From assembly GCA_031270475.1 (NCBI GenBank), contig JAISXO010000034.1, forward strand, positions 29,491 to 93,490: a stretch of DNA of 64,000 bases, read 5' to 3'. The position numbers were made by a program, and so were the translations under genes. The stretch is from Puniceicoccales bacterium (lineage in GTDB: Bacteria > Verrucomicrobiota > Verrucomicrobiia > Opitutales > LL51). Under the pieces are notes generated by a model. That model saw nothing but the letters and a program-made list of their open reading frames with translations, searched no databases and was not told the DNA's origin. Below are positions 2,688 through 62,370 of the stretch, piece by piece. Every line of letters begins with the position of its first letter. Positions within the stretch are counted from its first letter, which is position 1.

Positions 2688-2695
2688 GCTCAAAA

Positions 2696-2725
2696 GGCCA
2701 GAAATAAGTTTTCTAGCCTTTTTTT
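2696..2725. terminator. hairpin plus T-run between convergent lepA and the hydrolase gene
   Basis: GGCCAGAAA-taagt-TTTCTAGCC (one mismatch), preceded by AAAA and followed by TTTTTTT. It could terminate both strands. Confidence 0.55.
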
Positions 2726-2741
2726 ATCGTTATTTTTGGTG

Positions 2742-4551: not shown

Positions 4552-6405
4552 CTACATGATTGCTAAGATTTCTTGGCCACATTCCGTTTCTCCGAAGGGT
4601 ATAAGTTCTACATCATTGTTTGCATTTAACTTCATAAAAAAAGAACGTTCAGCGAAAAATTTCATGGGCTTTTGTTGTTGAAAAGAATCGTACGCCGTCG
4701 TTGCTCCATTTGATATTTCGCTTAGATCTTGAGTTCCGTTGGTGGGTTGTATACCCTGTGCAATTTGTAAAACATTGGGAAGCATTTGTCGAAACCCTTC
4801 CTCCGATGGGGGATTATTGAGATCAATCTTAAGTCGGTGAGGGCTATGTAATGCATTTTTGTAGGCTAATATTTTCCAATTGGTCAGTTCCATGTTGTGT
4901 AATCTCCAAGCTAATGTTGCGCCCTGTGTTGCGGGAAGGGTATTGCTATCGGCTGTTCCCATGAGAATAAATAACGGAGGGAGTGATGCTAGCTTGGGTT
5001 GTAGTTCGGCATCACTCATTCCGCAGGTTGGTGAAAATGGATAGGTACATTGAAGGATGTATTGCGCATGTTCAGCATTTTTTAATAGGTCATTTATTTT
5101 ATAGTTGCCTATTGATTGATTTTCAATCGAAATGGAACGATCATCGGGGGTTGCAAATTGAAAAGCGCAATCTCCAGATCGATTGTTGCCATATCCATCA
5201 AAATAAATAGCTCCTGACCATGCCTCATTCAATACGGGAGATACAAACGCTATCCCTGATTTGAAATTATCAATTAGGAATTGAGGGTCATTGGCGATCA
5301 ATAAAGACAAAATATATCCTCCAATGCTATGTCCCCAAAAGGTAATTTTATCGGTATCGATGTAAGCCAGTGTTTTAATCTTTTCTACTTGGTCTTTAAC
5401 CTGTTGTCGGAGATTACCTTTGCCGTTTTCAGAATCAAATTCAATGGTTGCACAGACTATACCGTTGGAGGCAAGAAATCGCGCTAATGGTTGGATGCCT
5501 ACGGAAACGTTGTTCGTGCGCCAATCTTGGTGAGAAGGAGGTGCCACTTGCTCAGACGCTTGTGTGTTTGGAAAAATTTGGGGGAGAGGCGGTGTCACTT
5601 GTTCTGGCGATTCGATATGTAAAGTCCCCTTCTCTTTTAACGCGCTTGCGATACTGCCTCCATGTAACCAAATGACACAAGGTAATTTTTCCCCTGAAGT
5701 TTTTTGGGTCGGAGAATAGACAACCATCGGAAGCTGCTTGTCATCCGTTTCCGTTATCAGCGTTTCGAATGTTATCACTGGGTCATGGCACTTGAGCGAA
5801 AGTGGTTCATATAGCAGAGGAGCTGCTATTTCCTGAATTAGTTTTAATTCGTTCCGTATTTTCCCTTCCCAATTATAAAATCTCCCCATTAGCGAAATCG
5901 ATTCTTGCGATTCTTGATGAGCTATAATGCGTTCAAGTTTTTCTTTTTCGGCCTCTGGAAGATTATTATTCCATGTTCCTATAATTGAATCGAGTTCTGT
6001 CTTGATTGAAGTTAAAGATGGGGCAACTAAGTTACAGAATTCATCTACGATCCCTTGAAAATTTTCAATTGCAGAACTCAATTGAACGGCTTGGTTCACA
6101 TTTTGACAATTTTTGCAGTTATTTAGATTATTGGCAGTTTTTTGCGAATATATTTGGGCGGAGCGTTTGATGTCCGTTTGGGAGGTATTTGCCTGTTCTC
6201 CTTGGATTTTCTGTTCTACTTGGCGCACTTTGTTCCGGAATGCTACGGTTTCCGGAGACAGATTTTCCATCATCAAAGCGGGATCTTGTTTAGCTTCAGA
6301 AGATGATTGTTCTGGAGGAGGATCGCCGTACAGCTTTAGTGCACTGAATTGCAAAGCATTCAATAATAATAAACTTGTAACACATGTTTTAAATTTAGTA
6401 TTCAT
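4552..6405 (-). CDS. secreted coiled-coil / alpha-beta hydrolase, paralog B
   Basis: 617 aa. The first ~30 residues are almost identical to paralog A. WLHGG and GHSIGG motifs, and a C-terminal ...ECGQEIL motif shared with paralog A (DCGKEIL). Confidence 0.7.
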   Translation of the reverse strand: MNTKFKTCVTSLLLLNALQFSALKLYGDPPPEQSSSEAKQDPALMMENLSPETVAFRNKVRQVEQKIQGEQANTSQTDIKRSAQIYSQKTANNLNNCKNCQNVNQAVQLSSAIENFQGIVDEFCNLVAPSLTSIKTELDSIIGTWNNNLPEAEKEKLERIIAHQESQESISLMGRFYNWEGKIRNELKLIQEIAAPLLYEPLSLKCHDPVITFETLITETDDKQLPMVVYSPTQKTSGEKLPCVIWLHGGSIASALKEKGTLHIESPEQVTPPLPQIFPNTQASEQVAPPSHQDWRTNNVSVGIQPLARFLASNGIVCATIEFDSENGKGNLRQQVKDQVEKIKTLAYIDTDKITFWGHSIGGYILSLLIANDPQFLIDNFKSGIAFVSPVLNEAWSGAIYFDGYGNNRSGDCAFQFATPDDRSISIENQSIGNYKINDLLKNAEHAQYILQCTYPFSPTCGMSDAELQPKLASLPPLFILMGTADSNTLPATQGATLAWRLHNMELTNWKILAYKNALHSPHRLKIDLNNPPSEEGFRQMLPNVLQIAQGIQPTNGTQDLSEISNGATTAYDSFQQQKPMKFFAERSFFMKLNANNDVELIPFGETECGQEILAIM

Positions 6406-16552: not shown

Positions 16553-17056
16553 ATAAATTTCTAAAAGAACCTAAAAATATTGTCTGCATTTTTTATTAGT
16601 TCCTCTTTTTTCTCAAAGGTAAAAACATCGAAGAATAAAAGGTTATACATTTGTTCCCTAATGGTTTCTTTTCGATTTTACGGAAAAGGTTTGTTTCTCT
16701 CGATATCCAAATATTCCCGAAACCCACTAGCGAACATAGCAATCATCCTCTAAAACATTTCTAATTTCATTTTTCATTTTAGGGGAGATATTTGGCGACT
16801 CATAAATTTCTAAAAGGACCTAAAAGCATTGTCTGTATTTTTTATTAGTTCCTCTTTTTTCTCAAAGGTAAAAACATCGAAGAATAAAAGGTTATACATT
16901 TGTTCCCTAATGGTTTCTTTTTGATTTTACGGAAAAGGTTTGTTTCCCTCGATATCCAAATATTCCCGAAACCCACTAGCGAACATAGCAATCATCCTCT
17001 AAAACATTTCTAATTTCATTTTTCATTTTAGGGAAAATATTTGGCGACTCATAAAA
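16553..17056. repeat. tandem duplication, 2 x ~249 bp
   Basis: 16553-16801 and 16802-~17056 are near-identical by eye, with a few substitutions or indels. Each unit contains the 3' end of a minus-strand open frame (...PKMKNEIRNVLEDDCYVR*) plus ~170 bp downstream. Confidence 0.9.
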
Positions 17057-17263
17057 TTCTTCTAGTTGGTACATAGCGTTTGCTCTTTCCTTAGGCGGGA
17101 GAACATAGTTTTTTACATTTCCCAGGCATTTGCGACACTTGTTGTCTGCCGCTTGAATTACGAAGTTGTTTAACTTAAATCTTGCTGTTACATGAACTTT
17201 TCTAGATCCAAAGGCTTTCCTTCCTAAAACTTCCCCAGTATCCCCATCCAGAGCAGATGTCCT
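16976..17263 (-). pseudogene. start-less 95-codon open frame (gene remnant?)
   Basis: The frame is open from the TAA at 17264-17266 to the TAG at 16976-16978: RTSALDGDTGEVLGRKAF...NKCRKCLGNVKNYVLPPKERANAMYQLEEFYESPNIFPKMKNEIRNVLEDDCYVR. The first ATG is at codon 64. No family recognised. Confidence 0.3.
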
Positions 17264-24327: not shown

Positions 24328-25821
24328 CTATTCGAAACGGCCATTTTCCACGTGTACGAGCTCCCAGAGGCGGTAGCGTTGACTACCTTTGATAAAAATA
24401 TTTCCCTGAATTTTCCTTTGAAAGATTGCCTTTATTCGTTCTATTTCTTCGCCATAGAAAATTGTTAACGTTCCGGCGATTGCCTTTAATCGATTACAAA
24501 AAATTTTCATTTCTTCTCCGACGGCGAAAATTATTACGTTTTTTTTATTAAAAAAATATTCCGCCAGAACTTCATGATAATTTTGTGAGAATTCTCCCAA
24601 CTCGCGCATTCCGCCCAGGACGTAGGTATTATCGCCGGGGTATTTTTGATCAAAAAATTGCAGTGCGTCCATCATGGCAACTGGATTTGCGTTGTAGCAG
24701 TCGAGGTAAACTTCACGGCCTTGGAAATAGATTGTTTCGCCCCGCAATTTCCCGGGATTCCACAACAAAATACGTTTTTGGATGGTATCGTCGGAGAGTC
24801 CTAAAATTTTTACTGCCGTTGCTGCTTTGGCGAAGTTTTCTTTTTGCCCGGCGCTCATTTCCGGAAATCTGAAGGTGGTGCCATCGAAATAGGTTCCATG
24901 TAGCGTGATTTTATTTTCTTCCGTGGATTTCTTTTCTTTTGGGAATTGGAAGTGGGACCAGTTTTGGTGACTTTCTTTTTGATCGCTACTCATTTCCGGT
25001 GCCGTAAAAGTAGCTCCCGCGGAATAAGTTTCCTGCAAAGTGAATTTCTTTTCTTCCGTAGATTGATTTTTTTTGCCGCATTGGAAGTGAGTAAAGCGAG
25101 GGAAATGCGAAATGTTTTTCCCTTGACCAATGACGATACATTGAGCGGCGAGTCGGCGGAACGGCATATACCCAAGGCAACTTTCCGGAATGATCCCAAT
25201 TTTTTTGCGTGCGATAGTATTTTCTAAAATTTTGCATTTTTCATTGACAAGCTGTTCAAAATTCGTAAAATTCGCGATATGTGTGAGTGTGATCCCAATT
25301 GTAATAGAGATTTCTGGTTCGACTAAATCGATGATGCGATCCATTTCGCCAGGGTGGTCGATTCCGCCCTCGATAACGCCGAAACGCTGGGATTTCATGT
25401 GACTGAGCGTGAGTGTAACGCCGAGTTCATTGTTGAGATTTTCGCGTGTTCCGTAGGCGTCGTCGGCGAGCAGGAGTTTGAGCATATCTTTTGTGGAAGT
25501 TTTGCCGTAGCTGCCGGTGATAGCGATGATGGTATAACTTTTCCGGTGAATTTTTGCGAGTGTTCTAGCGGCTTCGAGAACGTCAGGGACGCGGAGTTGA
25601 GGCAGGGTGAGATTTTTATTGATCCGGTTAACGAGAGCGCAGCTTGCTCCATTTTGTTGGGCGTGAGCGAGAAAATCGTGACCATTCCGTTGGGCGGTGA
25701 GGGCAAGGAAACAATCGCCGGGTTGGAGGGTTCGCGTATCGTTCCAGAAGCCGTTAATTTCGTTCGGAAGCTGGCCATAAAACTCTATTTCTGGCAACCG
25801 TTGAAAGAGGGTTGTCTCCAT
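24328..25821 (-). CDS. murF: UDP-N-acetylmuramoyl-tripeptide--D-alanyl-D-alanine ligase, with an internal 45-aa duplication
   Basis: 497 aa. ITGSYGKTSTKDML Mur-ligase P-loop. Order of N-terminal, central and C-terminal domains is typical of MurF. Confidence 0.85.
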   Translation of the reverse strand: METTLFQRLPEIEFYGQLPNEINGFWNDTRTLQPGDCFLALTAQRNGHDFLAHAQQNGASCALVNRINKNLTLPQLRVPDVLEAARTLAKIHRKSYTIIAITGSYGKTSTKDMLKLLLADDAYGTRENLNNELGVTLTLSHMKSQRFGVIEGGIDHPGEMDRIIDLVEPEISITIGITLTHIANFTNFEQLVNEKCKILENTIARKKIGIIPESCLGYMPFRRLAAQCIVIGQGKNISHFPRFTHFQCGKKNQSTEEKKFTLQETYSAGATFTAPEMSSDQKESHQNWSHFQFPKEKKSTEENKITLHGTYFDGTTFRFPEMSAGQKENFAKAATAVKILGLSDDTIQKRILLWNPGKLRGETIYFQGREVYLDCYNANPVAMMDALQFFDQKYPGDNTYVLGGMRELGEFSQNYHEVLAEYFFNKKNVIIFAVGEEMKIFCNRLKAIAGTLTIFYGEEIERIKAIFQRKIQGNIFIKGSQRYRLWELVHVENGRFE

Positions 25822-25964
25822 AATGGTGGTAGTATAAATTAACGGAAAAAGGGAAGCGATAAAATTTTTTTCGAGTTAATCATTGATTCGGTTAGCGAGA
25901 GCGCAGTTTGCGTCATTTCGTTGTGCATGAGCAAGAAAAATTATAATTCGAGAATAAAAAGCAC

Positions 25965-26081: not shown

Positions 26082-27458
26082 TTATATATATCGCCGCACG
26101 TTTGCCGACGGAATCGCAAGGAACGTACGATATTTAGTCACGGTTCGTCGAGCAATCCAAATGCCTTCATTTTGAAGTATTTGGGCGATTTTTTCATCGC
26201 TGAGCGGTTTGTTTTTGTTTTCATTTTTGATAATATTTTTAATACTCTCTCGGAGCGTGTTTTGTGCGATGAGGGAGCCATGATTACCGTGGGAAAAAAA
26301 GAAATCCAGCGGAATAATTCGATGTGGAATTTGAACATATTTATTTTTGACAGCCCGGGAAAGTGTTGTGGAGTGGATTTCGAGGCATTCCGCCACTTGT
26401 TTTTGACTCTGCGGACGAAGAAAATCACTGCCATTTTCTAGGAAGTCGCTTTGAAATTTCAAAATATATTCGGCAATTTTTTGTAAAGTTTCCCGGCGCT
26501 TGTGCAGCATCTTAACCAAAAATTGGGCTTGTTGTTTGTTCTCGGTAAAAAAATTACGGTCTTCGCGCTTTGATGAATGGGTAAACATCCTTAGGTAAAG
26601 GTCATTTATACGAATTTCCGGTGCACCGCGAACTTCGCAGCTCCAATGGCCGTCAATTTTTTGGAAAATAATTTCTGGAACAATCGCCGGATTGGCGTTG
26701 GGCATAATCGTTTTGAGCGGTGCAAAATTTAGCAATTTCAAGGGCACCAAAAGTGTACGCAATTCGGATGCCGTCTTACATAATTTTCTCCGCAATTTAG
26801 CGAATCGGCGATGCTCGAGGTCATCGAAATAGTGTGCAACGAGGTCATGGAGCGGCGTATTTTCCGGAATTTGCAACCGAAAGCAATCCTGCAAATCATG
26901 GGCACCAATCCCCTTCGGCGAAAGCGATCGCAATATCGCATAGGCTGTTTCAAAAACATTTTGCCGCGCATCGTCGGTCCGCGCATCGCAATTTTCCTCG
27001 CCATCCGGCCAAGAAATCCCGTACTGCTGAGCCGCATCCTCTGGCAAAAATCCGCGATCATCGAGGCTATTAATTAGCGTCGTCAGTGCCGTTTTTGTCG
27101 CCTCGTCCAAATCGGGAACCTGGGCGAGGAGGTAATCCTCAGGTGAATCTTCGGCACTAATATTTTCTAAAAAATTTGGATTGCTTTCTTCGTTATTTGG
27201 TATATCGCTCGTGCGCGCGCGCGCGCTCATATTAATAGTACTTTCCTTACTTGCACTCGCTGGAAAGCCGTAGGGAGCCGTGTCGGCGATGTCGAGAAGG
27301 GGGTTGCGCTGAATTTCCGCAGCAATGAGCCGGTAAAGTTCCTCGGTCGGCAATTGCAAAATGTCCAGAGAACGGAGCATGGACGGAGATAGTCGTTGGC
27401 TTTGAATTTGTAGGCGATCGTTCCTTAGGTCCACGGCGTAAGCATGGAGAGATACCAA
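26082..27458 (-). CDS. rpoN: RNA polymerase sigma-54 factor
   Basis: 458 aa. Gln/Leu-rich region I, HTH region, and RpoN box ARRTVTKYR near the C-terminus. Confidence 0.95.
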   Translation of the reverse strand: MVSLHAYAVDLRNDRLQIQSQRLSPSMLRSLDILQLPTEELYRLIAAEIQRNPLLDIADTAPYGFPASASKESTINMSARARTSDIPNNEESNPNFLENISAEDSPEDYLLAQVPDLDEATKTALTTLINSLDDRGFLPEDAAQQYGISWPDGEENCDARTDDARQNVFETAYAILRSLSPKGIGAHDLQDCFRLQIPENTPLHDLVAHYFDDLEHRRFAKLRRKLCKTASELRTLLVPLKLLNFAPLKTIMPNANPAIVPEIIFQKIDGHWSCEVRGAPEIRINDLYLRMFTHSSKREDRNFFTENKQQAQFLVKMLHKRRETLQKIAEYILKFQSDFLENGSDFLRPQSQKQVAECLEIHSTTLSRAVKNKYVQIPHRIIPLDFFFSHGNHGSLIAQNTLRESIKNIIKNENKNKPLSDEKIAQILQNEGIWIARRTVTKYRTFLAIPSANVRRYI

Positions 27459-27708
27459 CTTTTTTCAAGAAATGAAGTTAATTTTTGAGGGAATCAATCT
27501 GTGCCAAAAGAATTTCCGCAGCAATGAGCCGGTAAAGTTTCTCGGTCGGCAATTGCAAAATGTCCAGAGAACGGAGCATGGACGGAGATAGTCGTTGGCT
27601 TTGAATTTGTAGGCGATCGTTTCTTAGGTCCACGGCGTAAGCATGGAGAGATACCAACTTTTTTCAAGAAATGAAGTTAATTTTTGAGGGAATCAATCTG
27701 TACCAAAA
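27311..27708. repeat. tandem duplication, 2 x 199 bp, covering the rpoN 5' end and upstream region
   Basis: 27311-27509 and 27510-27708 differ at only a few positions by eye. The distal copy holds an rpoN start codon at 27657 and 49 identical or near-identical codons. Confidence 0.9.
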
Positions 27709-27809: not shown

Positions 27810-29081
27810 TTACGAAGAAAACCCTATTTTTTTCGAACCGACAAATTCTTGTAAAACTTCCGGTAAAAGTACGTTGCCATCCGCTTGGAGATTATTTTCT
27901 AAAATCGCTGCCAGAACGCGCGGTACGGCCAATCCCGAACCGTTGAGCGTGTGAACAAAGGTCGATTTCCCTGTTTTTTCGCGAAATTTAATCCCAGCGC
28001 GCCGTGCTTGAAAGTCCGTAAAATTACTGCAGCTGGAGACCTCGAGCCAGCGTTTCTGCCCTCCGGACCAGACCTCCAAATCGTACTGTTTGCTGTGTGA
28101 AAACCCGATGTCGCCGGTGCAAATGGAGAGCACGCGGTAAGGGAGATTCAATTTTTGGAGCAATTTTTCCGCATCGCGACGCAACTTTTCGAGTTCGGCG
28201 AAACTCTGATCGGGATGGGTCCACTTGACGAGCTCCACTTTATCGAACTGATGCAGGCGATTCAATCCGCGGACATCCTTGCCCCAACTCCCCGCTTCTC
28301 GGCGGAAACAGGGTGTGTAGCCGCAGCGATAAACGGGCAGCTCCGATTCCTCGAAAATTTCATCGCGGAAAAAATTCGTTACGGGGACTTCCGCCGTCGG
28401 AATCATGTAAAAATCGTCCGCTGCGTCGTGGTACATTTGGCCCTCCTTGTCGGGAAGTTGGCCGGTTGCGGTCGCGCTTTCGGCATTGACCATGATCGGC
28501 GCCATAAACTCGGTGTAGCCGTTGGCCTTGGCTTCATTGAGGAAAAATGTCACCAGGGCGCGTACGATGCGGGCGCCATCGCCGATGTAAAACGGGAAGC
28601 CGGCGCCGGTCACTTTGACGCCCCGCGGAAAATCGATCAGCCGGTTGAACCATGGAATATCGTAGTGCGGAACGGCGTTTTTGGAAATTTTTTCGATATC
28701 GCTCCAGGTTGTGACCGTCTGGTTATCATCCGCGTTTTTGCCGATTGGCACAGATTCGTGGGGCACATTGGGGATACTGAGGTAAAGCGCCTTCCATTTT
28801 TCTTCGATGGTTGCGAGTTGGCCATCGAGCGCCTTCGCTTCATCGGCGAACGTTCGCAGTTCAGCGATTTTCGTTTGAAATTCGGGCGATTTTTTATCGA
28901 GATTTTTGACGGTATCGTTGGCATTATTTTGTCGAGATTTCATTGATTCCAAGCGAGTAATGAGGTCGCGTCGTTCGCCATCGACAGCGAGGAAGGCATC
29001 GAGGTCGCAAGTGAATTTCTTTTTAGCGATTCCGGTTCGCACCTCGTCGCTATGTTCGCGGATAAATTTCAGATCTAACAT
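27810..29081 (-). CDS. serS: seryl-tRNA synthetase
   Basis: 423 aa. MLDLKFIREH start, coiled-coil arm, and class II motifs (...FRREAGS..., GSGLAVPR). Confidence 0.95.
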   Translation of the reverse strand: MLDLKFIREHSDEVRTGIAKKKFTCDLDAFLAVDGERRDLITRLESMKSRQNNANDTVKNLDKKSPEFQTKIAELRTFADEAKALDGQLATIEEKWKALYLSIPNVPHESVPIGKNADDNQTVTTWSDIEKISKNAVPHYDIPWFNRLIDFPRGVKVTGAGFPFYIGDGARIVRALVTFFLNEAKANGYTEFMAPIMVNAESATATGQLPDKEGQMYHDAADDFYMIPTAEVPVTNFFRDEIFEESELPVYRCGYTPCFRREAGSWGKDVRGLNRLHQFDKVELVKWTHPDQSFAELEKLRRDAEKLLQKLNLPYRVLSICTGDIGFSHSKQYDLEVWSGGQKRWLEVSSCSNFTDFQARRAGIKFREKTGKSTFVHTLNGSGLAVPRVLAAILENNLQADGNVLLPEVLQEFVGSKKIGFSS

Positions 29082-29087
29082 AATTTT

Positions 29088-29505
29088 AACTTTCCATTAA
29101 ATTTATTTATTTATTTTGTTTTTGGCGCCGAGTTTTTGGAGATCGTCGCATTGGGAGAAAAGGCCGCCGCGGCCGTTAATTTTCGGAATAATTTTATCAT
29201 CAAACTGCTCGTGCACCTTGCCAAAGAGCTTGTACAGTTCGCGCAATTCGTCAAGCAATCCACAAAATTTATCGTACAATTTTCCACTGAGGCCGGGTCA
29301 ACTTTCCATTAAATTTTCTTTTTTAATTGATTTTTTATTTTTGGCGCCGAGTTTTTGGAGATCGTCGCATTGGGAGAGAAGGCCGCCGCGGCCGTTGATT
29401 TTCGGAATAATTTTATCATCAAACTGCTCGTGCACCTTGCCAAAGAGCTTGTACAGTTCGCGCAATTCGTCAAGCAATCCACAAAATTTATCGTACAATT
29501 TTCCG
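29088..29505. repeat. tandem duplication, 2 x ~212-219 bp, covering the rmuC 3' end and the rmuC-serS junction
   Basis: 29088-29299 and 29300-~29505 are near-identical apart from an AT-rich indel patch. Both copies end (minus strand) with ...TTAATGGAAAGTT(A/G)A, encoding LMES-stop. Confidence 0.9.
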
Positions 29506-30608
29506 CCGCGATCGGCAATTTCCTGTGCATTGAGGTTTTGTTTTTCGACCTGCCAAATCGCTTGAATCAGTCTCAGTGTCAAAAATAGCGTGGAAGGATA
29601 AACAATAATTACATTTTTCTGACGAGCGTATTCACAGATATCTTTTTTATGGGCCGAGGGATTGGAGACGACGCTCGCGTAGGCCGATTCGATGGGTAAA
29701 AACATCAGTAAAAATGGGCAAATATCGATGGCATTTTTAATTTGGTGGTATTTGGCTACTTCGTCGATGTGTTTTTGAATGGAGGCAATATGTTGCTGGA
29801 AAAACCGTTCCCGTTCCTGGGGGTCGGGGGTATTGACCATGCGTTCGTAGGCGGAAAGGGAGACCTTTGCATCGATCAAAATCCACTGATTGCGCGGGAG
29901 TTTGATGAGGAAATCCGGTCGAGCGGCTCCGTCATCGATCTTCAATTCGAGCCCCCTCCCTTGCTTGACATAGTCGCCATTTTCTTCAGATAGCCCGGCC
30001 TGCTCGAGGAGATTTTCCAGTTGAACCTCGCCCCAATCTCCCTGAATCTTCGCGTTATTGCGCAGGGCATTGGTCAAATTTTCGGCTTCGTTATGCATTT
30101 TTTCCACGCTGTCGAGGAGCGATTTGAGGTGGATCGACAGTTCCGTGCGCGATTTTGTTTCCGGAGAGAAAATTTCGGTTTTGAAGGTAGAGAATTCTTT
30201 TTGGAGATCGACGATAAGGTGGCCGATTTCCTTTTGTGTCTCCTCGGAAAATTTTTGTTTTTTGGCTTCTAGAATTTCCTGGGAGAGGCTGGAGAGCTCG
30301 AGTTTGAGTTGCTCTCGATGTTTGAGGATTTCGCTACGAGCGGTTTCGATAGCAATTTTTTCACCGGAGAGCCGTTGAAAATTTTCAAAAAGCTGATTGA
30401 ATTCCTGAGTTTTCTGTAAAAACTGCGCTTCAATGGCGGATAATCTCCCTTGTAATTCGGCCTTTTGCGTGGCGATTTCGGTGAAGCGCTCTTGGATATC
30501 CTTGAGTTGTGCAGCCAATGCGTTACATTCACTGCGATATTTATTAGCAAAATAGCAGATAATTCCTAGGAAAAACCCACAAGAAATAAGACACAGCGCA
30601 ATGATCAT
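29298..30608 (-). CDS. rmuC: DNA recombination protein RmuC
   Basis: 436 aa. N-terminal TM helix, long coiled coil, and RmuC nuclease-like C-domain (RPDFLIKLP..., IDAKVSL). Confidence 0.9.
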   Translation of the reverse strand: MIIALCLISCGFFLGIICYFANKYRSECNALAAQLKDIQERFTEIATQKAELQGRLSAIEAQFLQKTQEFNQLFENFQRLSGEKIAIETARSEILKHREQLKLELSSLSQEILEAKKQKFSEETQKEIGHLIVDLQKEFSTFKTEIFSPETKSRTELSIHLKSLLDSVEKMHNEAENLTNALRNNAKIQGDWGEVQLENLLEQAGLSEENGDYVKQGRGLELKIDDGAARPDFLIKLPRNQWILIDAKVSLSAYERMVNTPDPQERERFFQQHIASIQKHIDEVAKYHQIKNAIDICPFLLMFLPIESAYASVVSNPSAHKKDICEYARQKNVIIVYPSTLFLTLRLIQAIWQVEKQNLNAQEIADRGGKLYDKFCGLLDELRELYKLFGKVHEQFDDKIIPKINGRGGLLSQCDDLQKLGAKNKKSIKKENLMES

Positions 30609-30935
30609 GACAAAATATTATCTAAACCGCCAAAGAAATTTATTCAAATCCAAAAAATTTCCCCCAAAAAAGCTTGACATTAATTAAAAGCGCTGAAATA
30701 CTTGCTGCCAAGCGCTCTTGGATATCCTTGAGTTGTGCAGCCAATGCGTTACATTCACTGCGATATTTATTAGCAAAATAGCAGATAATTCCTAGGAAAA
30801 ACCCACAAAAAATAAGACACAGCACAATGATCATGACAAAATATTATCTAAACCGCCAAAGAAAATTATTCAAATCTAAAAAAAAATCCCAAAAAAGCTT
30901 GACATTAATTAAAAGCGCTGAAATACTCGCTACCA
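30484..30935. repeat. tandem duplication, 2 x 226 bp, covering the rmuC 5' end and the divergent promoter region
   Basis: 30484-30709 and 30710-30935 are near-identical. ORF 30640..30834(-) is the decoy rmuC 5' fragment; its first 41 aa match RmuC closely. Confidence 0.9.
30899..30927 (+). promoter_or_regulatory. candidate sigma70-type promoter (a duplicate sits at ~30673-30701)
   Basis: aaaaaagcTTGACA (30899-30904), 17 nt, AATACT (30922-30927). Lies 11 nt upstream of ATG 30938. Confidence 0.5.
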
Positions 30936-30937
30936 TT

Positions 30938-32344
30938 ATGTTAAATAATAGATTAGTAAAATTGAGAGTGTTCGCCCTGAGTTTATTAGCGGGAGCGAGT
31001 TGTAATGGGGCGATGGCTTCTGAAAAAAGCTTGTTGACACAAGTGCAGGAGAACATTGAAATTTGGCAATCGCCAGAGGCTCTTCCCGAGGATAAAGCGC
31101 AGGCTAAAGATTTTTTGGCATCGCATGAAATCGAGGCCGACGATATTTATAGACCAGAAGATGTAAGGCGTGCTTGGGAGCCCAAATTCACATCGCTAAC
31201 GCGGAATGTCGTTCGCACGAATTCACTTAAATTAGAAAATGGATATCACTTGCCCATGATTGGAACGGGAACTTTGGTTGACGTAGGCATTTCAGGATTG
31301 GAGGGAAGAACTGTCATAACCTGTGCCCATTGTTGTGGATTTGATGATACCGTAGATAGCTTAGCTGCAATGACTAGGATCGATAACAATGGAGATGGCG
31401 CCGGTGTAATCCGCACGTACTATCTTGAGGGTGGCCCGTTTTCCCGTATGAGATCCAATAAATATGTTTCCATAACGTCGGAAATTGAGCAGACGTCCGC
31501 GCCGCTTCCCATATGCAATACACTAGATGATTTTAAGGCAGCGTTGACCAATGGATCGGCCTATGCCATCGAAGGTGCGTACTTTTTTGCGACCACGTCG
31601 AGTAAAATGAAAATAATACAAGCAGATGCAGATGGAAATCCATTATATGAACGCGATGCAGATGGGAACATAATATATGAACTAGATGTGCGATTTTTGG
31701 ACATTGCCATAGCCATATTGAGAAAGCCGATAACACGTAATGGTAAGATTGTTTCCGGATTTCCGTTTGCGCAACTGAATGTTGCTAACACTGAGATACT
31801 CAAGGAAATTACGATACTATGTAAACATGAGGACGGTAAGCCGGACACGTTCGAACGACAAGAGGTACAAGGGCATATTTTAGGTATAAACCCAGCTAAT
31901 CCAGCGCTTATCGTAGGATATGGCTTAACGGGATGTGTGAGTTTAATGCTTGATTACGCCATTAATCAAAATTTGGAGCAAGCTGTAGAACAAAATAGAT
32001 TGCCAGAAAGACAACGGTTGCTCAATTTATTGGGATGGAATACAAAAAAAGCAATTTGTTTGAATGGTGTGGATACAACTTACAGGAATTGCCTAGGATG
32101 TTGTTGCCGGCCTAATGATAGGCCTGGTGTGAAAGCATACTTTCCTGCCGAATTGAAATTAGAAGAATGCTATTCTGTTTACAAGGCCAATGGTGGGTTC
32201 AGCGGAAGTTTAATCTTGGATCAAAAAATGAACACTGACGGCAGTTGGAATGTAATCGGGATATTTGGTGGTTCTACATGGACCGATCAATTGCGAAATG
32301 CAGTTTATCAAGCAGCGGAGCATTATGCTAGGATTGCGCAATAA
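30938..32344 (+). CDS. secreted trypsin-like (chymotrypsin-fold) serine protease candidate
   Basis: The internal ATG of ORF 30827..32344 gives MLNNRLVKLRVFALSLLAGASCNGAMA (signal peptide). TCAHC (His region) and NGGFSGS (Ser region) fit an S1-type fold. The upstream part of the ORF lies in the duplicated rmuC/promoter repeat. Confidence 0.5.
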   Translation: MLNNRLVKLRVFALSLLAGASCNGAMASEKSLLTQVQENIEIWQSPEALPEDKAQAKDFLASHEIEADDIYRPEDVRRAWEPKFTSLTRNVVRTNSLKLENGYHLPMIGTGTLVDVGISGLEGRTVITCAHCCGFDDTVDSLAAMTRIDNNGDGAGVIRTYYLEGGPFSRMRSNKYVSITSEIEQTSAPLPICNTLDDFKAALTNGSAYAIEGAYFFATTSSKMKIIQADADGNPLYERDADGNIIYELDVRFLDIAIAILRKPITRNGKIVSGFPFAQLNVANTEILKEITILCKHEDGKPDTFERQEVQGHILGINPANPALIVGYGLTGCVSLMLDYAINQNLEQAVEQNRLPERQRLLNLLGWNTKKAICLNGVDTTYRNCLGCCCRPNDRPGVKAYFPAELKLEECYSVYKANGGFSGSLILDQKMNTDGSWNVIGIFGGSTWTDQLRNAVYQAAEHYARIAQ

Positions 32345-34820: not shown

Positions 34821-34915
34821 TTCTTTCAATGTATTGTAAAGCGCCAGAGATAGACGAATCGTTCCGCCAATGCCGAGCGCATGCATCAACGAATTACGCA
34901 TAGTGATATCCGGTG
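34821..34915 (-). pseudogene. displaced partial copy of the sufS 3' region
   Basis: 34821-34915 matches sufS 35077-35172 with an offset of 256 bp. The first ~80 bp are highly similar by eye and the rest is weaker. It lies beyond the sufS stop codon. Confidence 0.75.
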
Positions 34916-35010
34916 TTTTCGGTCACTCAAAGTTTTTTAAATGGAATTCACGGAGAATAAAATTGCTAGAAAATTAAATCGAACGTGGGCGATAGGCGGG
35001 CGGTGCATTG

Positions 35011-36234
35011 TTATCGATGGGAATTTTTCTTAAAAATATGGATAATTTTGTCCATGGCAGTGACCAGTTGCTCAATTTCTTCCAATGTGTTGTAAGGCGC
35101 CAGAGATAGACGAACCGTTCCGCCAATGCCGAGCGCATGCATCAACGGTTGCGCACAGTGATGCCCGGCTCGTACCGCAATTCCCTCGCTATCAAATATA
35201 CTGGCCACATCGTGGGGATGCGCGGATCGATGAATGAATGAAATAATTCCCGTTCGCTGATTGTTCGGCTTGAGAACCTCAATGGACGAATTTTGTCCCA
35301 AAATTTCCAAAACATGCCCCTTGAGTCCCTCGCCATATCTTTGTGCCTCAATCCAATCTATCTTCCCGAGAAATCGAATCGCTTCCCGTAGCCCCGTAAC
35401 TCCAACAACATTCGGCGTACCTGCTTCAAAACGAGTAGGAATCTCGCGGAATAAGGCCGGTTGATCGAAGGCTACGCGATCGACAATCCCTCCGCCTAAG
35501 TGGTACGGCTGAAAATGCTCCAGGTGTTCGGCGCGGCCATAGAGAAATCCAATTCCCATCGGCCCAAAAGCCTTGTGCGCGGAAGTTGCAAAGAAATCAC
35601 ACTCCATCTCCCGTACATCAATCGGTCCGTGTCCCAATGATTGCGCGCCATCGACGATGCAAAGCGCTCCAACCCTATGCGCCATCTGGGCAATTTTTTT
35701 TATCGGATTAATCGTCCCTAAAACGTTTCCAATGTGCGCAATGGAAACAATCCGCGTGCGCTCCGAAAGCTTGTGCCCAAAATCATTCCCGTCGAAATCG
35801 CCCGCTTCCGTCATCGATACAATGCGAATCGTCGCCCTAAGCCGCTGCCATGGAAGAATATTAGCGTGGTGTTCCTGGACAAATAAAATAATTTCATCTT
35901 CCGTTGTGAGAGATGCGAATTGGGATGCTAGAAAATTGATGCCTTCCGTCGTCCCCGAATTGAGAATGATTTCCCGTGGCTCGCGAGCGTTGATCCAATG
36001 GGCGATTTCTCGGCGTGTAGACTCGTAAATTTCCTCGGCCTTCGCACTGAGATCATATATCCCGCGGTGGACGTTAGCGTTAGTTGTGCGCAGATGGTAG
36101 GCCATTGCTCCGATGACACGCTCCGGTAATTGAGTTGTGGCCGCGTTATCGAAGTAAATCAGAGGCTTTTCAAAACGATTGTGACCACTTAAGATCGGGA
36201 ATTCCTGGCGAAAGGCGTGAACATCGAAACTCAT
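35011..36234 (-). CDS. sufS: cysteine desulfurase (SufS/CsdA class V aminotransferase)
   Basis: 407 aa. HHANILPWQ, SAHKAFGPMGIG (PLP lysine) and RAGHHCAQP motifs. Confidence 0.9.
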   Translation of the reverse strand: MSFDVHAFRQEFPILSGHNRFEKPLIYFDNAATTQLPERVIGAMAYHLRTTNANVHRGIYDLSAKAEEIYESTRREIAHWINAREPREIILNSGTTEGINFLASQFASLTTEDEIILFVQEHHANILPWQRLRATIRIVSMTEAGDFDGNDFGHKLSERTRIVSIAHIGNVLGTINPIKKIAQMAHRVGALCIVDGAQSLGHGPIDVREMECDFFATSAHKAFGPMGIGFLYGRAEHLEHFQPYHLGGGIVDRVAFDQPALFREIPTRFEAGTPNVVGVTGLREAIRFLGKIDWIEAQRYGEGLKGHVLEILGQNSSIEVLKPNNQRTGIISFIHRSAHPHDVASIFDSEGIAVRAGHHCAQPLMHALGIGGTVRLSLAPYNTLEEIEQLVTAMDKIIHIFKKNSHR

Positions 36235-36426: not shown

Positions 36427-36478
36427 GTCGTTTCTGAAAAGATAATTTTCAAAAATAAAAATATTTTGTATTTTCTTC

Positions 36479-36628: not shown

Positions 36629-37330
36629 ATGAGTGCCATCAAACTCGGCGCACAAAAGGCAAAGGATCAATCCAACTTGCAAAAAATTGCCGAAGCTTGG
36701 CGCGGAGCCGTGATCGATCGCGGCTGGATAATCGATGGTGAAAGTGGCGGAAATATAAAATCTACCGATTTTGCAGAGCAATTGGCCGGACGAGATAATG
36801 GGAAAAGTATCTCGGATATGATTTTGAATGATCCCTATGTTTGGATTTCTCCAGGCGATAAATATGCCTCAAGAATTCAAAAAGAATCACTTTGTATTTT
36901 AGTGGATGATTCTGTCCGATTCGCTGACGCTTTTATGGAAGTTAATGGCAATTTTATGGTCTCGGGAAAATACCTACTTAGTTATTGCATCGTATGTAGG
37001 TTGCCCGGGAATGTTCCTCTCGATACGACGCCGCTCGGTTTTACGCGTGGACTTAACAAAAATGGAAAGTGGGATGAAAAAGCTAGCCTATATGGCTCGA
37101 AGGGCGGCTATGTCGTTTTCTGCGATGGTCACGTCGCGTGGTTTGACGGCAGTAAGCCAGCACGATTCTTGAAATGGGGTGGGTCGGGTGTTACACGACT
37201 GATATTTGTGAAGCAGTTCCTGGTGGCACTTGGATTACATGTGCCCACGATTATGATAGAATTCAAGCAGCTTACTGGGGCGAAGATGCTAAAGCCATCC
37301 TCAGTTCCGCCGGTATCGGTTGATGATTGA
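36629..37330 (+). CDS. prepilin-type / H-X9-DG family protein (N-terminus apparently frameshifted)
   Basis: C-terminal DGHVAWFDG fits H-X9-DG. In-frame upstream sequence (36560-36628) encodes SFTLVEIVFTIAIIGILLAILPPA but has no in-frame start. The ATG at 36513 is in another frame and stops at 36540. Confidence 0.6.
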   Translation: MSAIKLGAQKAKDQSNLQKIAEAWRGAVIDRGWIIDGESGGNIKSTDFAEQLAGRDNGKSISDMILNDPYVWISPGDKYASRIQKESLCILVDDSVRFADAFMEVNGNFMVSGKYLLSYCIVCRLPGNVPLDTTPLGFTRGLNKNGKWDEKASLYGSKGGYVVFCDGHVAWFDGSKPARFLKWGGSGVTRLIFVKQFLVALGLHVPTIMIEFKQLTGAKMLKPSSVPPVSVDD

Positions 37331-37854: not shown

Positions 37855-39054
37855 TTGCCGAAAAATACGTTTATTCCCATGGACGCGCTCGTCAAACTCG
37901 TCGACGGTATCGATACAATTGTTGGACAGGAGTCCCTATCGGAACGCCTATCGCAAAAAAAAATCCTGAAAGTGAAACTTGGTGTCGATCCAACTCGCCC
38001 CGATTTGACCTTTGGCCATATGGTCGTTTTCAATAAATTGCGCCAGTTTCAGGATCTCGGCCACGAAGCAATTTTGCTGATCGGCGACCATACTGCTACC
38101 ATTGGCGATCCTTCCGGTCGTTCTTCGACGCGCCCGGTGTTGACTACCCAAGAGGTCGACCAAAATGCCAAAACTTACCTCGAGCAGGCCTTCAAAATTA
38201 TCGATCCCGAGAGGACGACGATTCGGCGCAATAGCGAGTGGTTTCGAAGGATGACGTTCGACGATATGCTCATTATTGCCCGTAAAATGACGGTTGCGCG
38301 GATGCTTGAGCGGGACGATTTTGCGAAACGCTACCGCGAAAATGAGCCCATTTCCATTGTCGAGTTTTTATATCCTTTGATGCAGGGGTATGATTCGGTC
38401 ATGCTCGAAGCCGACGTCGAGCTTGGCGGAACGGATCAATTTTTCAATTTATTGGTTGGCCGCGCGCTCCAAAGGGATTATGGCCAGCGGGAGCAGATTG
38501 TCATCACGATGCCGCTCATCGTCGGTCTTGATGGGAAGCGTAAAATGTCAAAAAGTTACGATAATTACATTTCATTTAACCATTCTTCAAAGGATATGTT
38601 TGGGCGGATCATGTCGATTCCGGACGAAGTGATGTGGACCTATTTCAAGTTATTATTGGAGTATTCTGACGGGGCGATCGAGGCGTTGAAGGGGGGGCAT
38701 CCCATGGATGCGAAAAAATTTTTGGCTCGATCGTTGGTGGCGCGATTTTACGGTCCAGAAGTCGGGGAGCAAGAGTTAGCGGATTTTGAGGCGGTATTTT
38801 CGCATGGAGAAATCCCGGAAGCGATGCCGGAATTTTCGTTACAAGCGATGGCAAAGGATCCGGTTACTTTAGCCGACGCGATGGCATATTCGCAATTTTT
38901 TGAAAGCAATCGAGAGATTCGCCGACTCATTGAGCAAGGAGCTGTCAAAGTTAATGGGAAGAGTGAAAAGAATTTTAAGTTTCCTTTACGATCCGACCGC
39001 TGTCCCCATGTCATTCAGTCTGGCAAGCGCATATTTTTAAAAGTTATTCCGTAG
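37855..39054 (+). CDS. tyrS: tyrosyl-tRNA synthetase
   Basis: 399 aa. Class I motifs (TFGHMV HIGH-like, KMSKS). C-terminal S4-like domain (IRRLIEQGAVKVNG). Alternative start at 37879. Confidence 0.9.
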   Translation: MPKNTFIPMDALVKLVDGIDTIVGQESLSERLSQKKILKVKLGVDPTRPDLTFGHMVVFNKLRQFQDLGHEAILLIGDHTATIGDPSGRSSTRPVLTTQEVDQNAKTYLEQAFKIIDPERTTIRRNSEWFRRMTFDDMLIIARKMTVARMLERDDFAKRYRENEPISIVEFLYPLMQGYDSVMLEADVELGGTDQFFNLLVGRALQRDYGQREQIVITMPLIVGLDGKRKMSKSYDNYISFNHSSKDMFGRIMSIPDEVMWTYFKLLLEYSDGAIEALKGGHPMDAKKFLARSLVARFYGPEVGEQELADFEAVFSHGEIPEAMPEFSLQAMAKDPVTLADAMAYSQFFESNREIRRLIEQGAVKVNGKSEKNFKFPLRSDRCPHVIQSGKRIFLKVIP

Positions 39055-39505
39055 AAAATAATTAGTGCGTTTATGGCTAATTATTTTTTGCATTATCGCA
39101 GTCGAAAAATTATTTTTTTGTAACGGCGATATATCTTTAAATAGATTTTGAGGCGGTATTGCACACAGAGAAATTGAAAAAAAACAAAAAGGATTTTAAG
39201 ATTCCTTTATAATTCGACCGCTGTCCCCATATTATTCAGTCCGGCAAGCGCATATTTTTAAAAGTTATTCCGTAGGAAATAATTAATGTGTTTACGGTTA
39301 ATTATTTTTTGCATTATCGCAATCGAAAAATTATTTTTTTGTAACGGCGATATATCTTTAAATAGATTTTGAGGCGGTATTGCACACAGAGAAATTGAAA
39401 AAAACAAAAAGAATTTTAAGATCCTTTTACGATTCGACCGCTGTCCCCATGTCATTCGGTCTGGCAAGCGCATACTTTTAAAAGTTATTCCGTAGGAAAA
39501 TGATT
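38972..39505. repeat. tandem repeat, ~2.4 x ~221 bp, reiterating the tyrS 3' end
   Basis: ATTTTAAG...CGACCGCTGTCCCCAT...GGCAAGCGCATA..TTTTAAAAGTTATTCCGTAG recurs at 38972, 39193 and 39413. The units also carry AGATTTTGAGGCGGTATT, which matches tyrS at ~38785. Confidence 0.85.
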
Positions 39506-39545
39506 AATTTATTTACAATTGAATCTTTTTTTTTACACTAATGCA

Positions 39546-47043: not shown

Positions 47044-47668
47044 ATTTTTTTTGTATTACGAATTGTTGATGTTTTTTTTATTCTGTTCGGGGTGTACACT
47101 TTTCAAGACGACTCCCGATCGGACGCGTCTATTTGACATTGGATTTCGGGGGACGCAATCGGCGATGTCTTCGGTAGACAGTGCAAAAATTTGTCTTATT
47201 TTGGGGAGTTTTCCGGATTATCTCGATGGATCACCGATCATCACGAAGATTGGTGAGCATGAATTGAAAAATAATCCGCGCTATCGTTGGGCCAAACCGC
47301 TTTCGGAAACGATTCTTTACATTGTAAAACGCAGTATTTTGCAAAGTTTTTCGAAAGTTTACGTCTATGAATTCCCCAAAGATACCATGGATAAGATTGA
47401 TTTTACGCTATGTTTAGACGTCGATGGGCTGGAGATTTGCGAAGTGACGCAGCGGATTATCTTTAAAGGGACGTGGACTTTTTTAGATGCGAAGCAACGG
47501 AATATAACCCATGCTCCATTTGAATTTTGCGAGTCATTTGATGATTTTTCGGATCGTTACGGAGAAATAGTGGCCAAGGTGGAGCAGGTTATCCATCATT
47601 TAGGCGACGCGATTGTAAAGGAAATGGATCTTATTTTTCTAAAAAGAATAACGGGAAATAATCCCTAG
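47033..47668 (+). CDS. ABC-transport auxiliary lipoprotein (PqiC/YmbA-like)
   Basis: MKTRFFLYYELLMFFLFCSGC lipobox. Its position directly after an MCE gene is typical. Confidence 0.6.
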   Translation: MKTRFFLYYELLMFFLFCSGCTLFKTTPDRTRLFDIGFRGTQSAMSSVDSAKICLILGSFPDYLDGSPIITKIGEHELKNNPRYRWAKPLSETILYIVKRSILQSFSKVYVYEFPKDTMDKIDFTLCLDVDGLEICEVTQRIIFKGTWTFLDAKQRNITHAPFEFCESFDDFSDRYGEIVAKVEQVIHHLGDAIVKEMDLIFLKRITGNNP

Positions 47669-47958
47669 CAAGCCGTTTGGGATGCGTTTAAAAGAAGAAG
47701 AGAATATTAGTGGAGAGAGGCGTCGCATTTCTTTTTTTGATATGAATGATAGAAATAAGAAGAAATAGTGGCCAAGGAGGAGCAGGTTATCCATCATTTA
47801 GGCGACGCGATTGTAAAGGAAATGGATCTTATTTTTCTAAAAAAAATAACGGGAAATAATCCCTAGCAAGCCGTTTTGGATGCGTTTAAAAGAAGAAAAG
47901 AATATTAGGGGAGAGGCGTCGCATTTCTTTTTTTGATATGAATGATGGAAATAAGAAG
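47563..47958. repeat. tandem duplication, 2 x 198 bp, spanning both 3' ends of a convergent gene pair
   Basis: 47563-47760 and 47761-47958 are near-identical. The junction reads gatAGAAATAagaAGAAATAgtgg, with AGAAATA microhomology. Confidence 0.9.
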
Positions 47959-49224
47959 ACTGATTGCGGAACCTAAAAGAAGAATACGCGTCAAAATAAA
48001 ATATGAACCAAAACTCTTTTGAGAATAACTGAACGCCGATGGCGCAATGGCGGCAAAAAGAGAGACGATCAGTGCCACGCTAGACATGATGTGCCCAAGG
48101 TGTTTCCGGCCAAAAAGTTTGGGCCAAGGCGCCGCAGAGGCGATTCCGTAAAGCGACCAGTTAAATCCACACAAGCAAATAAAAGGCCATAATCCCCACG
48201 ATTGGCAAACGTTTTCTAAAAAAAACATCAGAGCCGCATTGGTCGAAAAAATTGCGAGTAAACAGCAGCGAATTGAAGATCGATCCTGAAGAATACTGAA
48301 TAGAACTCCCGCAATCGCGCTGACTACGGCGGCAAATGGAAAAATGTTCAGTGGATTGGCAGTGCAGGCGTGGGCCTCGCGAAAAATATCGACGATGTGA
48401 ATCTCTAAACCCGTTGAAGTAAAAGTCGACGTCGAAACCGCTAGAACAAAAATCCAAAAATCAAAGGTACCAAGTGCCTGACGCAACGTGTAGTCGCGCG
48501 CAACAATTGGATGATCACTGTTGTTTTTTAATCCATCTCGATTGCTGCCAACCGACTGAGGATTGTCGCGACATAGGGCCCAAATAAAAGGAAGCATTAC
48601 CAAAAGAATAATGAGGCCTTGCGCCATCCAAGCCGTGAGGTAGCCCAATTCTTCGATTAAACGGTGAATAATCTTCGGCGCACAACCAAAGGTAATGGAA
48701 ACAAAAATACCGGAAATGCCAATCATGGTGCAACTTCTTTTATCGTACCACTGGAGAAGCATCATGCGACTGGCGAGCGGGATGAGGTTTTGTCCGCATA
48801 GTTTTAGTAAAAAAAGTCCCGGGAAAAGTATGCAAGTAACGGCGACAAAGTGCGAGGTACAGCCTTCCACCGAGGCGATGGCAGAAGCGATGTGGCCCAT
48901 GAAAAGCAGTGTTAATCCCAGCATTAATGTGGCATAGGTAACGGCTCGACGAATTCCGATGCGGTCAAAAAGTGTGCCTAAAAGTGGCAGTAACAGGGCA
49001 CTGAGCAGGGTCGCGAAGAAAAAAATATTACTGAAATGATTGCGAGAAATGTGTAAATTTTGAATGAGTTCTTCCGTAAAGGGGCAAAGGCCGACGCTAT
49101 GGCCAGGAATACTAATCATTCGCGCGCAAAGAGAGGTAAAAAAGATGACCAAACCGTAAAAAAATGGTACACGCTTTGGAGCAAAGGGAAAATTTGGGGC
49201 AAAAATTTTCGATTTTTTCGACAT
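47905..49224 (-). CDS. MFS transporter
   Basis: 439 aa, ~12 predicted hydrophobic helices, and an MFS motif-A-like LGTLFDRIGIRR. Confidence 0.75.
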   Translation of the reverse strand: MSKKSKIFAPNFPFAPKRVPFFYGLVIFFTSLCARMISIPGHSVGLCPFTEELIQNLHISRNHFSNIFFFATLLSALLLPLLGTLFDRIGIRRAVTYATLMLGLTLLFMGHIASAIASVEGCTSHFVAVTCILFPGLFLLKLCGQNLIPLASRMMLLQWYDKRSCTMIGISGIFVSITFGCAPKIIHRLIEELGYLTAWMAQGLIILLVMLPFIWALCRDNPQSVGSNRDGLKNNSDHPIVARDYTLRQALGTFDFWIFVLAVSTSTFTSTGLEIHIVDIFREAHACTANPLNIFPFAAVVSAIAGVLFSILQDRSSIRCCLLAIFSTNAALMFFLENVCQSWGLWPFICLCGFNWSLYGIASAAPWPKLFGRKHLGHIMSSVALIVSLFAAIAPSAFSYSQKSFGSYFILTRILLLGSAISLLISIIHIKKRNATPLP

Positions 49225-62364: not shown

Positions 62365-62370
62365 TTGATT

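Follow-up and report, generated by a model that had tools for sequence, protein, structure and literature searches.

Spontaneous tandem duplications in enteric bacteria, as described by Anderson and Roth and by Reams and Roth, are head-to-tail, have a single novel join point, and are filtered by selection. Their size is typically from kilobases to hundreds of kilobases. They arise between long repeats (rrn, insertion sequences (IS), and repetitive extragenic palindromic (REP) elements) or short homologies, and are rapidly lost through RecA. In the tandem duplication-random loss model for animal mitochondrial genomes, one redundant copy decays, leaving pseudo-fragments and longer spacers. Flap-endonuclease defects (yeast rad27 and E. 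coli polA 5'-nuclease mutants) raise the rate of short tandem duplication during lagging-strand maturation. Arrays in Ehrlichia are said often to be multi-copy, with a copy number that varies between strains. In Ehrlichia ruminantium, Collins et al. (2005, PNAS) and Frutos et al. (2006, J Bacteriol) reportedly described units of about 150 bp and up, with most pseudogenes being truncated, repeat-associated fragments. A passage of PMC10710844 describes the long intergenic regions of this intracellular species as shaped by active expansion and contraction at non-coding tandem repeats, and a passage of PMC7343930 describes its tandem repeats as mostly non-coding. Literature searches returned no description of tandemly duplicated gene ends in either Verrucomicrobia or termite symbionts. 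The locus described here is rmuC, together with its two flanking junctions, in a 64-kb stretch of DNA (the window) from a Puniceicoccales bacterium of the Verrucomicrobiota (contig JAISXO010000034.1).

In this window, rmuC carries one head-to-tail duplication of about 215 bp at its 3' end and another of 226 bp at its 5' end. It is highly probable that the two are independent, lineage-specific events, and that they represent two of nine products of a recurrent mutational process for which nothing about rmuC is special. The rmuC case is an ordinary tandem segmental duplication, and the genome-wide, size-restricted, low-homology pattern to which it belongs is what is worth following. E. ruminantium is the nearest described case. 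Both genomes have long-period repeats that are concentrated in non-coding DNA and that lengthen spacers, and none of the nine events here lies within a gene. Unlike the Ehrlichia arrays, eight of the nine events are two-copy and each unit is a unique gene-end sequence. The genome also differs in belonging to the Verrucomicrobiota, in its GC content of about 44%, and in its coding density (83% as opposed to about 64%). Compared with enteric duplications, the units are short (about 200-300 bp), most joins are without homology, and copies persist to 16% divergence. The mitochondrial model involves whole genes and changes in gene order, whereas only gene ends are duplicated here and gene order is unchanged. 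Duplications caused by flap-endonuclease defects are reportedly mostly shorter than about 100 bp and flanked by short direct repeats, whereas those found here are about 200-250 bp and mostly without flanking repeats. This signature is nevertheless a candidate for the kind of cause that could underlie a lineage-specific excess.

The live rmuC gene (29298..30608, minus strand) is intact and encodes a protein of 436 amino acids. Residues 134-426 match the Pfam RmuC family (PF02646) with E = 1.2e-73 and 248 bits, relative to a cut-off of 26, and cover profile positions 9-290 of 291. This is a full-length match above the curated threshold. The downstream gene, serS (27810..29081, minus strand; 423 amino acids, identified by Pfam), starts at 29081, which was ancestrally 4 nt past the rmuC stop codon.

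The 3' duplication is a direct repeat of positions 29088-29296 and 29300-29515. The core (29114-29285 and 29333-29504) is 98.3% identical over 172 nt. The AT-rich tail is 36 nt long, is 83% identical, and contains a 7-nt indel, so that the spacing of the repeat reads 212 nt in the tail and 219 nt in the core. A blastn search within the window recovers the duplication with E = 1e-85. The 212-219 bp unit that an earlier reading of this DNA (the sequence-only reading) had proposed is thus present. The copy within the live gene (29300..29515, minus strand) comprises the last ~70 codons of rmuC. The other copy (29086..29285, minus strand) is a decoy, or pseudo-3' end of rmuC, which keeps the ancestral TAA, the 4-nt gap, and the serS ATG, and which has a residual open reading frame (ORF) at 29103..29279. 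Both copies end in ...TTAATGGAAAGT (LMES) followed by a stop codon, for which the serS-proximal copy has TAA and the live gene has TGA. The sequence-only reading had described both ends as LMES-stop. This is correct for the nucleotide sequence but not for the decoy frame, as a 7-nt deletion shifts LMES-TAA out of frame and the decoy ORF stops earlier. Between the copies is a novel junction (29286..29299) of 12-14 nt with no clean match, which is the source of the TGA of the live gene. The junction may consist of filler DNA or of a heavily mutated extension of rmuC (CCGATCGCGGCGG versus CCGGCCTCAGTGG) joined at a GGAAA(G)TT microhomology. With relatives as outgroups, 16 of the differing columns are assigned to the decoy, including seven in the single frameshifting deletion, and three to the live copy, including the stop-codon change. 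The 3' decoy is decaying. The sole substitution in the 172-nt core that is assigned to the decoy (C to T; 29162-29174, minus strand) creates GGCCGCGGCGGCC followed by TTTTCTCC. Together these resemble a weak terminator-like hairpin and T-run between rmuC and serS, which the live copy lacks and which may well be due to chance.

The closest genomes are metagenome-assembled genomes (MAGs) of termite-gut Puniceicoccales, in which RmuC is 81-91% identical to that of the window. The protein collection contains no RmuC closer than 91%, and a scan of JGI metagenomes with RmuC returned no relative. The comparison across relatives that the sequence-only reading had called for finds a single copy at both sites, with collinear flanks, in all ten relatives. 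Because none of the ten carries either duplication, both arose in this lineage. The pseudo-3' copy and serS of the window align as one continuous stretch to rmuC-serS in the relatives. In eight of the ten relatives the rmuC stop codon (TAA or TAG) is followed by 4 nt and the serS ATG, as had been claimed for the ancestral state. The gap is likewise 4 nt in locus L012, 3 nt in L013, and 2 nt in L014. Since the relatives have this arrangement, the serS-proximal copy holds the ancestral junction and the TGA of the live gene lies at the novel one. The pseudo-3' end now separates the live stop codon from the serS ATG. By its sequence, serS retains its ancestral ~210 nt of upstream context through the decoy, and the 4-nt distance to a translated rmuC stop has been lost.

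RmuC of the window has the same length as RmuC of the relatives, and the alignment spans residues 1-436. Relative to the nearest relatives, the ratio of nonsynonymous to synonymous substitution rates (dN/dS) in live rmuC is 0.05-0.08, with dS of about 0.8. These values indicate that rmuC is under purifying selection and functional, and that both duplications are much younger than the split from the nearest relatives.

In the 5' duplication, positions 30484-30710 and 30710-30935 form a 226-bp unit with 95.2% identity over 227 aligned columns and one 1-nt indel (blastn within the window, E = 7e-102). The inner copy (30484..30710) contains the first 41 codons of live rmuC, 101 nt of upstream sequence, and both promoter-like sites. 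The outer copy (30710..30935) contains a decoy rmuC 5' fragment and the ancestral intergenic region, and ends 2 nt before the ATG of the divergent neighbour gene (30938..32344, plus strand). The copies abut and the join shares a single A (30710). The decoy ORF (30640..30834, minus strand) encodes 64 amino acids, which are RmuC residues 1-41, a membrane-anchor-like N-terminus with two substitutions, followed by 23 unrelated codons. Seven differences are assigned to the outer copy and four to the inner copy, mostly in the spacer between the promoters. This polarity is weaker than on the 3' side. The units and junctions of the 3' and 5' events differ, so the two events are independent. This independence, the 226-bp unit with its 41 codons, the decoy ORF, and the doubled divergent promoter had all been put forward in the sequence-only reading. 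That reading overlooked the duplicated rmuC promoter, the frameshift in the 3' decoy, an rpoN 5' event 1.6 kb away, and six other sites.

The predicted promoter of the neighbour gene (TTGACA-N17-AATACT, with a TG extended -10, plus strand) occurs at 30674..30702 in the inner copy and at 30899..30927, the ancestral position, in the outer copy. These are the two best promoter-like matches in positions 28900-31100, each with 10 of 12 positions, and the -35 position is conserved in relatives. The inner copy is oriented antisense through the decoy fragment and would fire into it, as the earlier reading had supposed. A predicted rmuC promoter (TTGAAT-N17-TAGATA, minus strand) occurs at 30619..30647 before the live gene, where it is conserved in most relatives aligned, and at 30845..30873 before the decoy ORF. 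Both duplicated promoter-like sites have the sigma-70 form, with -35 and -10 hexamers, a 17-nt spacing within the usual 16-18 nt, and a position conserved in relatives, and all four hexamers of the unit are intact in both copies. The 103-nt region of predicted back-to-back promoters between rmuC and its neighbour is now present twice. The neighbour gene therefore probably has tandem promoters, and, because the rmuC promoter-like site also lies inside the unit, the 64-codon decoy ORF probably possesses its own promoter and start codon. In the outer copy, the -10 of the neighbour promoter-like site ends 10 nt before the ATG at 30938, which suggests that the mRNA of the neighbour gene is near-leaderless.

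A repeat survey of the 64-kb window, together with tblastn of every window protein, identifies nine clean tandem duplications, whose periods are now 198-299 bp and whose identities are 84-98.5%. Two are the rmuC 3' event (from 29088; 212-219 bp, 98% in the core) and the rmuC 5' event (from 30484; 226 bp, 95%). At lower coordinates in the window are a duplicated convergent intergenic spacer (16553..17060; 249 bp x2, 96.5%, with ~10 nt of imperfect junction homology), the 5' end of a Mur-ligase gene (25618..25939), and the 5' end of rpoN (27311..27708). The Mur-ligase event, with a period of 264 bp and 84% identity, is the oldest. It left a decoy of residues 50-68 upstream of the gene and is absent from relatives. 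The rpoN event (199 bp x2, 98.5%) includes RpoN residues 1-49 and the upstream region. Further along are the 3' end of a class-V aminotransferase gene (34821..35162; 256-bp period, 91%, with a decoy of residues 364-404 of 407) and the 3' end of tyrS (38966..39516; 221 bp x2.5, 91-93%, with two decoys of TyrRS residues ~369-399, single copy in L016). The 3' ends of two convergent genes, encoding an ABC-transport auxiliary lipoprotein and an MFS transporter, are duplicated at 47563..47959 (198 bp x2, 96%). The last event is a decoy of the 3' end of ychF (62239..62657, with the start also placed at 62294; 89%), with a present period of 299 bp. As this period includes a later 97-nt GC-rich palindromic element, the original unit was probably shorter. 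The tyrS array, with 2.5 copies, is the only event with more than two copies, and the other eight have exactly two.

Together the nine events account for 2,234 nt of added sequence (3.5% of the window and 21% of its non-coding DNA). Copy divergence across events is continuous, from 1.5% to 16%. In the tblastn searches, decoys appear only as terminal fragments that adjoin the parent gene. No older, more decayed decoys were detected in long spacers beyond the nine events at E = 0.01. The only match from Rfam and tRNA scans of the window is a tRNA-Leu (56097-56179), and the duplicated regions have none.

No unit of the nine is fully contained in a gene, whereas 67% of random placements would be (P about 5e-5). 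The six youngest events have units of 198-249 bp. The window contains no tandem repeats with a period of 31 to 197 bp and no clean tandem duplications with a period above 299 bp. Five of the seven well-defined joins share 0-2 nt, including the rmuC 5' join and a join in the relative L011, and these five do not have direct repeats of at least ~4 nt at both unit ends, as slippage would leave. No common motif is seen at the breakpoints among the joins compared. The well-defined young events have no element between the copies and no motif at their ends.

Similar events are present in the relatives, as independent occurrences. In L011, in which RmuC is 86% identical to that of the window, a duplication of originally 216 bp, now 177 bp, lies at the rmuC-serS junction and copies the serS 5' end, with a join of 0-1 nt. 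The resulting 54-amino-acid serS 5' ORF has a faint Seryl_tRNA_N match and was later shortened by a 39-nt deletion. L013 has a 279-bp duplication (82%) of the rmuC 5' end, L012 has a 128-bp duplication of the acpS 3' end, and L001 has an older duplication of 1,740 bp that includes a decoy rmuC 5' end. In L003 and L010, a GC-rich palindromic element and unrelated genes follow rmuC where serS is expected. The tyrS array and the murE decoy are absent from relatives, the tyrS-centred loci being an independent sample. In a compact outgroup (L014 and L015, with RmuC 65% identical), the same syntenic block has spacers of 2-35 nt or overlapping genes and contains no duplications. At a rough estimate, the density is nine events per 64 kb in the window and about five per 185 kb in the relatives, or about one-fifth (binomial P = 0.003).

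These observations are best explained by an account of duplication, selection, and decay. Short-range tandem duplication would recur in this termite-gut Puniceicoccales lineage and would require little or no homology at the join. A duplication wholly within a gene would disrupt that gene and be removed by selection. A unit placed across a gene end or within a spacer would spare one complete gene with its signals and survive, leaving a truncated decoy alongside. Decoys would then decay by substitutions and indels past recognition and would pad the intergenic spacers. The favoured mechanism would be a join made during replication or repair, for example through fill-in and end joining of staggered breaks or through homology-free template switching. 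This account explains the placement of the units, the single-copy state in relatives, the asymmetry of changes between copies, the range of divergence, and the recurrence at the same junction. At rmuC, the copies are head-to-tail, the relatives are single-copy, and the spare copy decays, less clearly so on the 5' side.

The two events flanking a single recombination gene had been called striking in the sequence-only reading. The duplications could be tied to rmuC through local hyper-recombination or through selection to modulate RmuC expression, and several observations point in this direction. Two events flank one 1.3-kb gene, further independent events lie beside rmuC in L001, L011, and L013, rearrangements follow rmuC in L003 and L010, and four consecutive junctions around rmuC are struck (P = 0.03, post hoc). 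However, the seven other events of the same type in the window lie by unrelated genes. With nine hits among 47 gene junctions, the probability of at least one gene having events on both sides is 0.84, so the double flanking of rmuC is what the density of the window predicts and is not striking. A hotspot at rmuC in the relatives was rejected, as the junctions of rmuC are not significantly over-hit (P 0.06-0.19) even though sampling of the relatives was centred on this gene. The RmuC protein has not changed and is under purifying selection, no positive evidence of a functional link was found, and a tie to rmuC is distinctly improbable. A further explanation is that the copies were retained as adaptive, for promoter doubling or for the uncoupling of rmuC and serS. 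The four intact promoter hexamers in both 5' copies fit such retention, as does a 3' event that parts genes ancestrally 4 nt apart. Several events, however, copy only the 3' ends of convergent or terminal genes and gain no promoter, the 3' decoy is decaying, and the general pattern requires no benefit. Adaptive retention is quite unlikely, although it is most plausible for the promoter doubling.

Slipped-strand or microhomology duplication between short direct repeats, with an abundance that reflects weak selection and slow loss in a small-population symbiont, is unlikely, and it is a better supported alternative than the others. It would account for the imperfect homology of ~10 nt at the ends of the 16553 duplication, for the reading of the rmuC 3' junction as a GGAAA(G)TT join, and, through relaxed selection, for the higher density in one lineage than in its relatives. 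It does not account for the five near-blunt joins, and slippage favours short distances, whereas periods between 31 and 197 bp are missing from the window. False tandem copies, in which metagenome strain variants are laid end to end, have to be considered for a contig from a short-read metagenome, particularly as copy divergence of 2-5% is within the range of strain variation. Two alleles should each be intact, whereas here one copy ends at an arbitrary codon, has a frameshifting 7-nt deletion, and carries most of the changes. Divergence also extends continuously to 16%, a de Bruijn assembler would need the junction sequence in reads to build a tandem copy, and analogous events with decay of their own (the 39-nt deletion) are present in independently assembled relatives. 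An assembly artefact is thus very improbable. Footprints of mobile elements or of site-specific integration, that is, attL/attR-type gene-end duplicates that remain after loss of an element, are barely plausible. Integrating elements often carry a copy of the end of the target gene, and the window does contain dispersed repeats. The well-defined young copies are nevertheless directly adjacent, no motif is common to the joins, and a dispersed element of ~60 nt overlaps none of the nine duplications.

The reading of the rmuC events as two of nine products of a recurrent process, filtered by selection, has several observations against it. The selection filter is deduced from placement, and a mechanism that targets promoters or terminators (e.g., transcription-replication conflicts) would predict the same picture. 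Selection does not account for the narrow range of sizes. The four consecutive struck junctions, which join murE, rpoN, serS, rmuC, and the neighbour gene, may reflect local clustering. Two joins are not blunt, namely the 16553 join and the rmuC 3' join, which may have used its microhomology. Placement and density are drawn from 64 kb of this genome. All assemblies are short-read metagenomes in which very young duplications (>99% identity) may be collapsed, so the densities are rough.

A more specific possibility is that the duplications come from a distinct low-homology process with a length ruler of ~200-250 bp, which runs several-fold faster than in sister lineages and is caused by a change in replication or repair. 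This is a tentative proposal and is doubtful at present. Candidate causes would be pairs of staggered nicks that undergo fill-in and end joining, or faulty processing of flaps or gaps. If it is true, such a process would rank among the main causes of intergenic expansion, and of new promoter arrangements and small ORFs, at an early stage of symbiont genome evolution.

The locus itself is of little consequence, as rmuC, serS, and the neighbour gene have all survived intact, and what remains of the extra copies is in decay. The wider pattern, in which about one in five gene junctions has a recognisable tandem duplication of 200-300 bp, is a natural record of one mutational process, with dated events, visible joins, and a probable selection filter. 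It shows a route from compact junctions, such as the 4 nt between rmuC and serS, to spacers of several hundred base pairs. It also shows how promoters may be doubled, how translational coupling may be lost, and how short decoy ORFs with promoters of their own may originate. For annotation, decoy gene ends may be called as small genes, as with the 54-amino-acid 'Seryl_tRNA_N' ORF in L011.

The divergent neighbour gene upstream of rmuC encodes a protein of 468 amino acids with a signal-peptide-like N-terminus, which is identical to NCBI LBR92_03115. Both the NCBI annotation and the start of the homologous gene in L001 are in agreement with a start at 30938. The sequence-only reading had labelled the product 'protease-like', and searches of Pfam, NCBIfam, and PDB sequences returned no match that would confirm this label. 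In the four family members, H131, D255, and GFSGS are invariant and occur in the order of the His-Asp-Ser triad of the chymotrypsin fold, with the motif order TCxHC ... D(I/L/V)A ... GFSGSL. This order suggests a chymotrypsin-fold protease, which nothing else confirmed. An AlphaFold2 (AF2) model from the four-sequence alignment has a mean predicted local distance difference test score (pLDDT) of 37.6 and is unusable for a fold search. The four members are those present in the protein collection, and one is from a Holosporaceae MAG (29% identity), which hints at gene exchange among bacteria of a common intracellular or protist-associated niche.

Across the clade, the gene that separates lpxD from rmuC differs in length, orientation, and copy number, and the compact outgroup L014 lacks it. 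This interval contains 30938-32344 in the window, 1694..3040 and 2895..3206 in L001, 7668..8867 in L011, 8319..9896 in L012, and 6455..8152 in L013. These genes are assumed to be homologous, and homology is demonstrated for L001 only. Within the neighbour gene, positions 31625-31684 form an in-frame tandem repeat of 30 nt x2 (DADGNPLYER / DADGNIIYEL), which is the sole tandem repeat found within the coding DNA of the window.

Among the relatives, L016 contains an in-frame repeat of 300 bp x2 (83%; 3986-4482) inside a gene of 462 amino acids, which is the sole case seen of a repeat of such size surviving within a gene. In L012, rpoN (sigma-54; 12768-14059) is split into ORFs with the core-binding and DNA-binding domains and is pseudogene-like. 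The split gene points to ongoing gene decay in the clade.

GC-rich palindromic elements, which resemble REP elements or miniature inverted-repeat transposable elements (MITEs), occur in the window at 749-817, 59424-59462, 61119-61217, and 62369-62465. Two of these copies form an inverted pair that flanks ychF (61273..62364). Elements of the same general kind, which were not compared directly with those of the window, occur at 7330-7539 in L003 and 940-1200 in L010, where they follow rmuC exactly where the adjacency to serS is lost.

The dispersed element of ~60 nt has the core GCCGCTTGCTCCCACCCT, followed by ...TTGAAAGAATTTCAGGnCCTGTCAAGT. Six copies are in the window, at 36363-36433, 37335-37391, 37561-37617, and 56004-56045 (plus strand) and at 57498-57571 and 7471-7488 (minus strand). 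Two further copies are in L011 (14263-14280 and 14454-14471). The copies at 36.4 and 37.3 kb sit just upstream of the starts of pseudopilin-type genes. The element could be a regulatory site or a small mobile element. Spacings of 226 bp and 958 bp at 36.4-37.6 kb were rejected as duplications, as they arise from paralogous pseudopilin gene starts that each lie behind a copy of the element. A 191-bp repeat at rpoN/murE in L011 was rejected on the same grounds.

The two pseudopilin blocks (36401-36608 and 37359-37566; the gene is at 36629..37330) are 91% identical and include a promoter-like site with TTGACA and an N-terminus of the prepilin type (KSFTLVEIVF...). In both blocks, the FTLVE segment is in a different frame from a short ORF (MIDLQSNKA*), and the sequence between the two has no ordinary start codon. 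A frameshift, a non-canonical start, or a pseudogene state shared by the two blocks could account for this. The downstream ORF has a weak H-X9-DG C-terminal match, and the second block is truncated by the next dispersed element.

Two adjacent paralogues on the minus strand (2742..4385 and 4552..6405) encode proteins that are 32% identical. Their 5' ends and upstream regions (4275-4441 and 6295-6462) share a 168-nt stretch with 95% identity. This pattern suggests gene conversion or a recent partial duplication.

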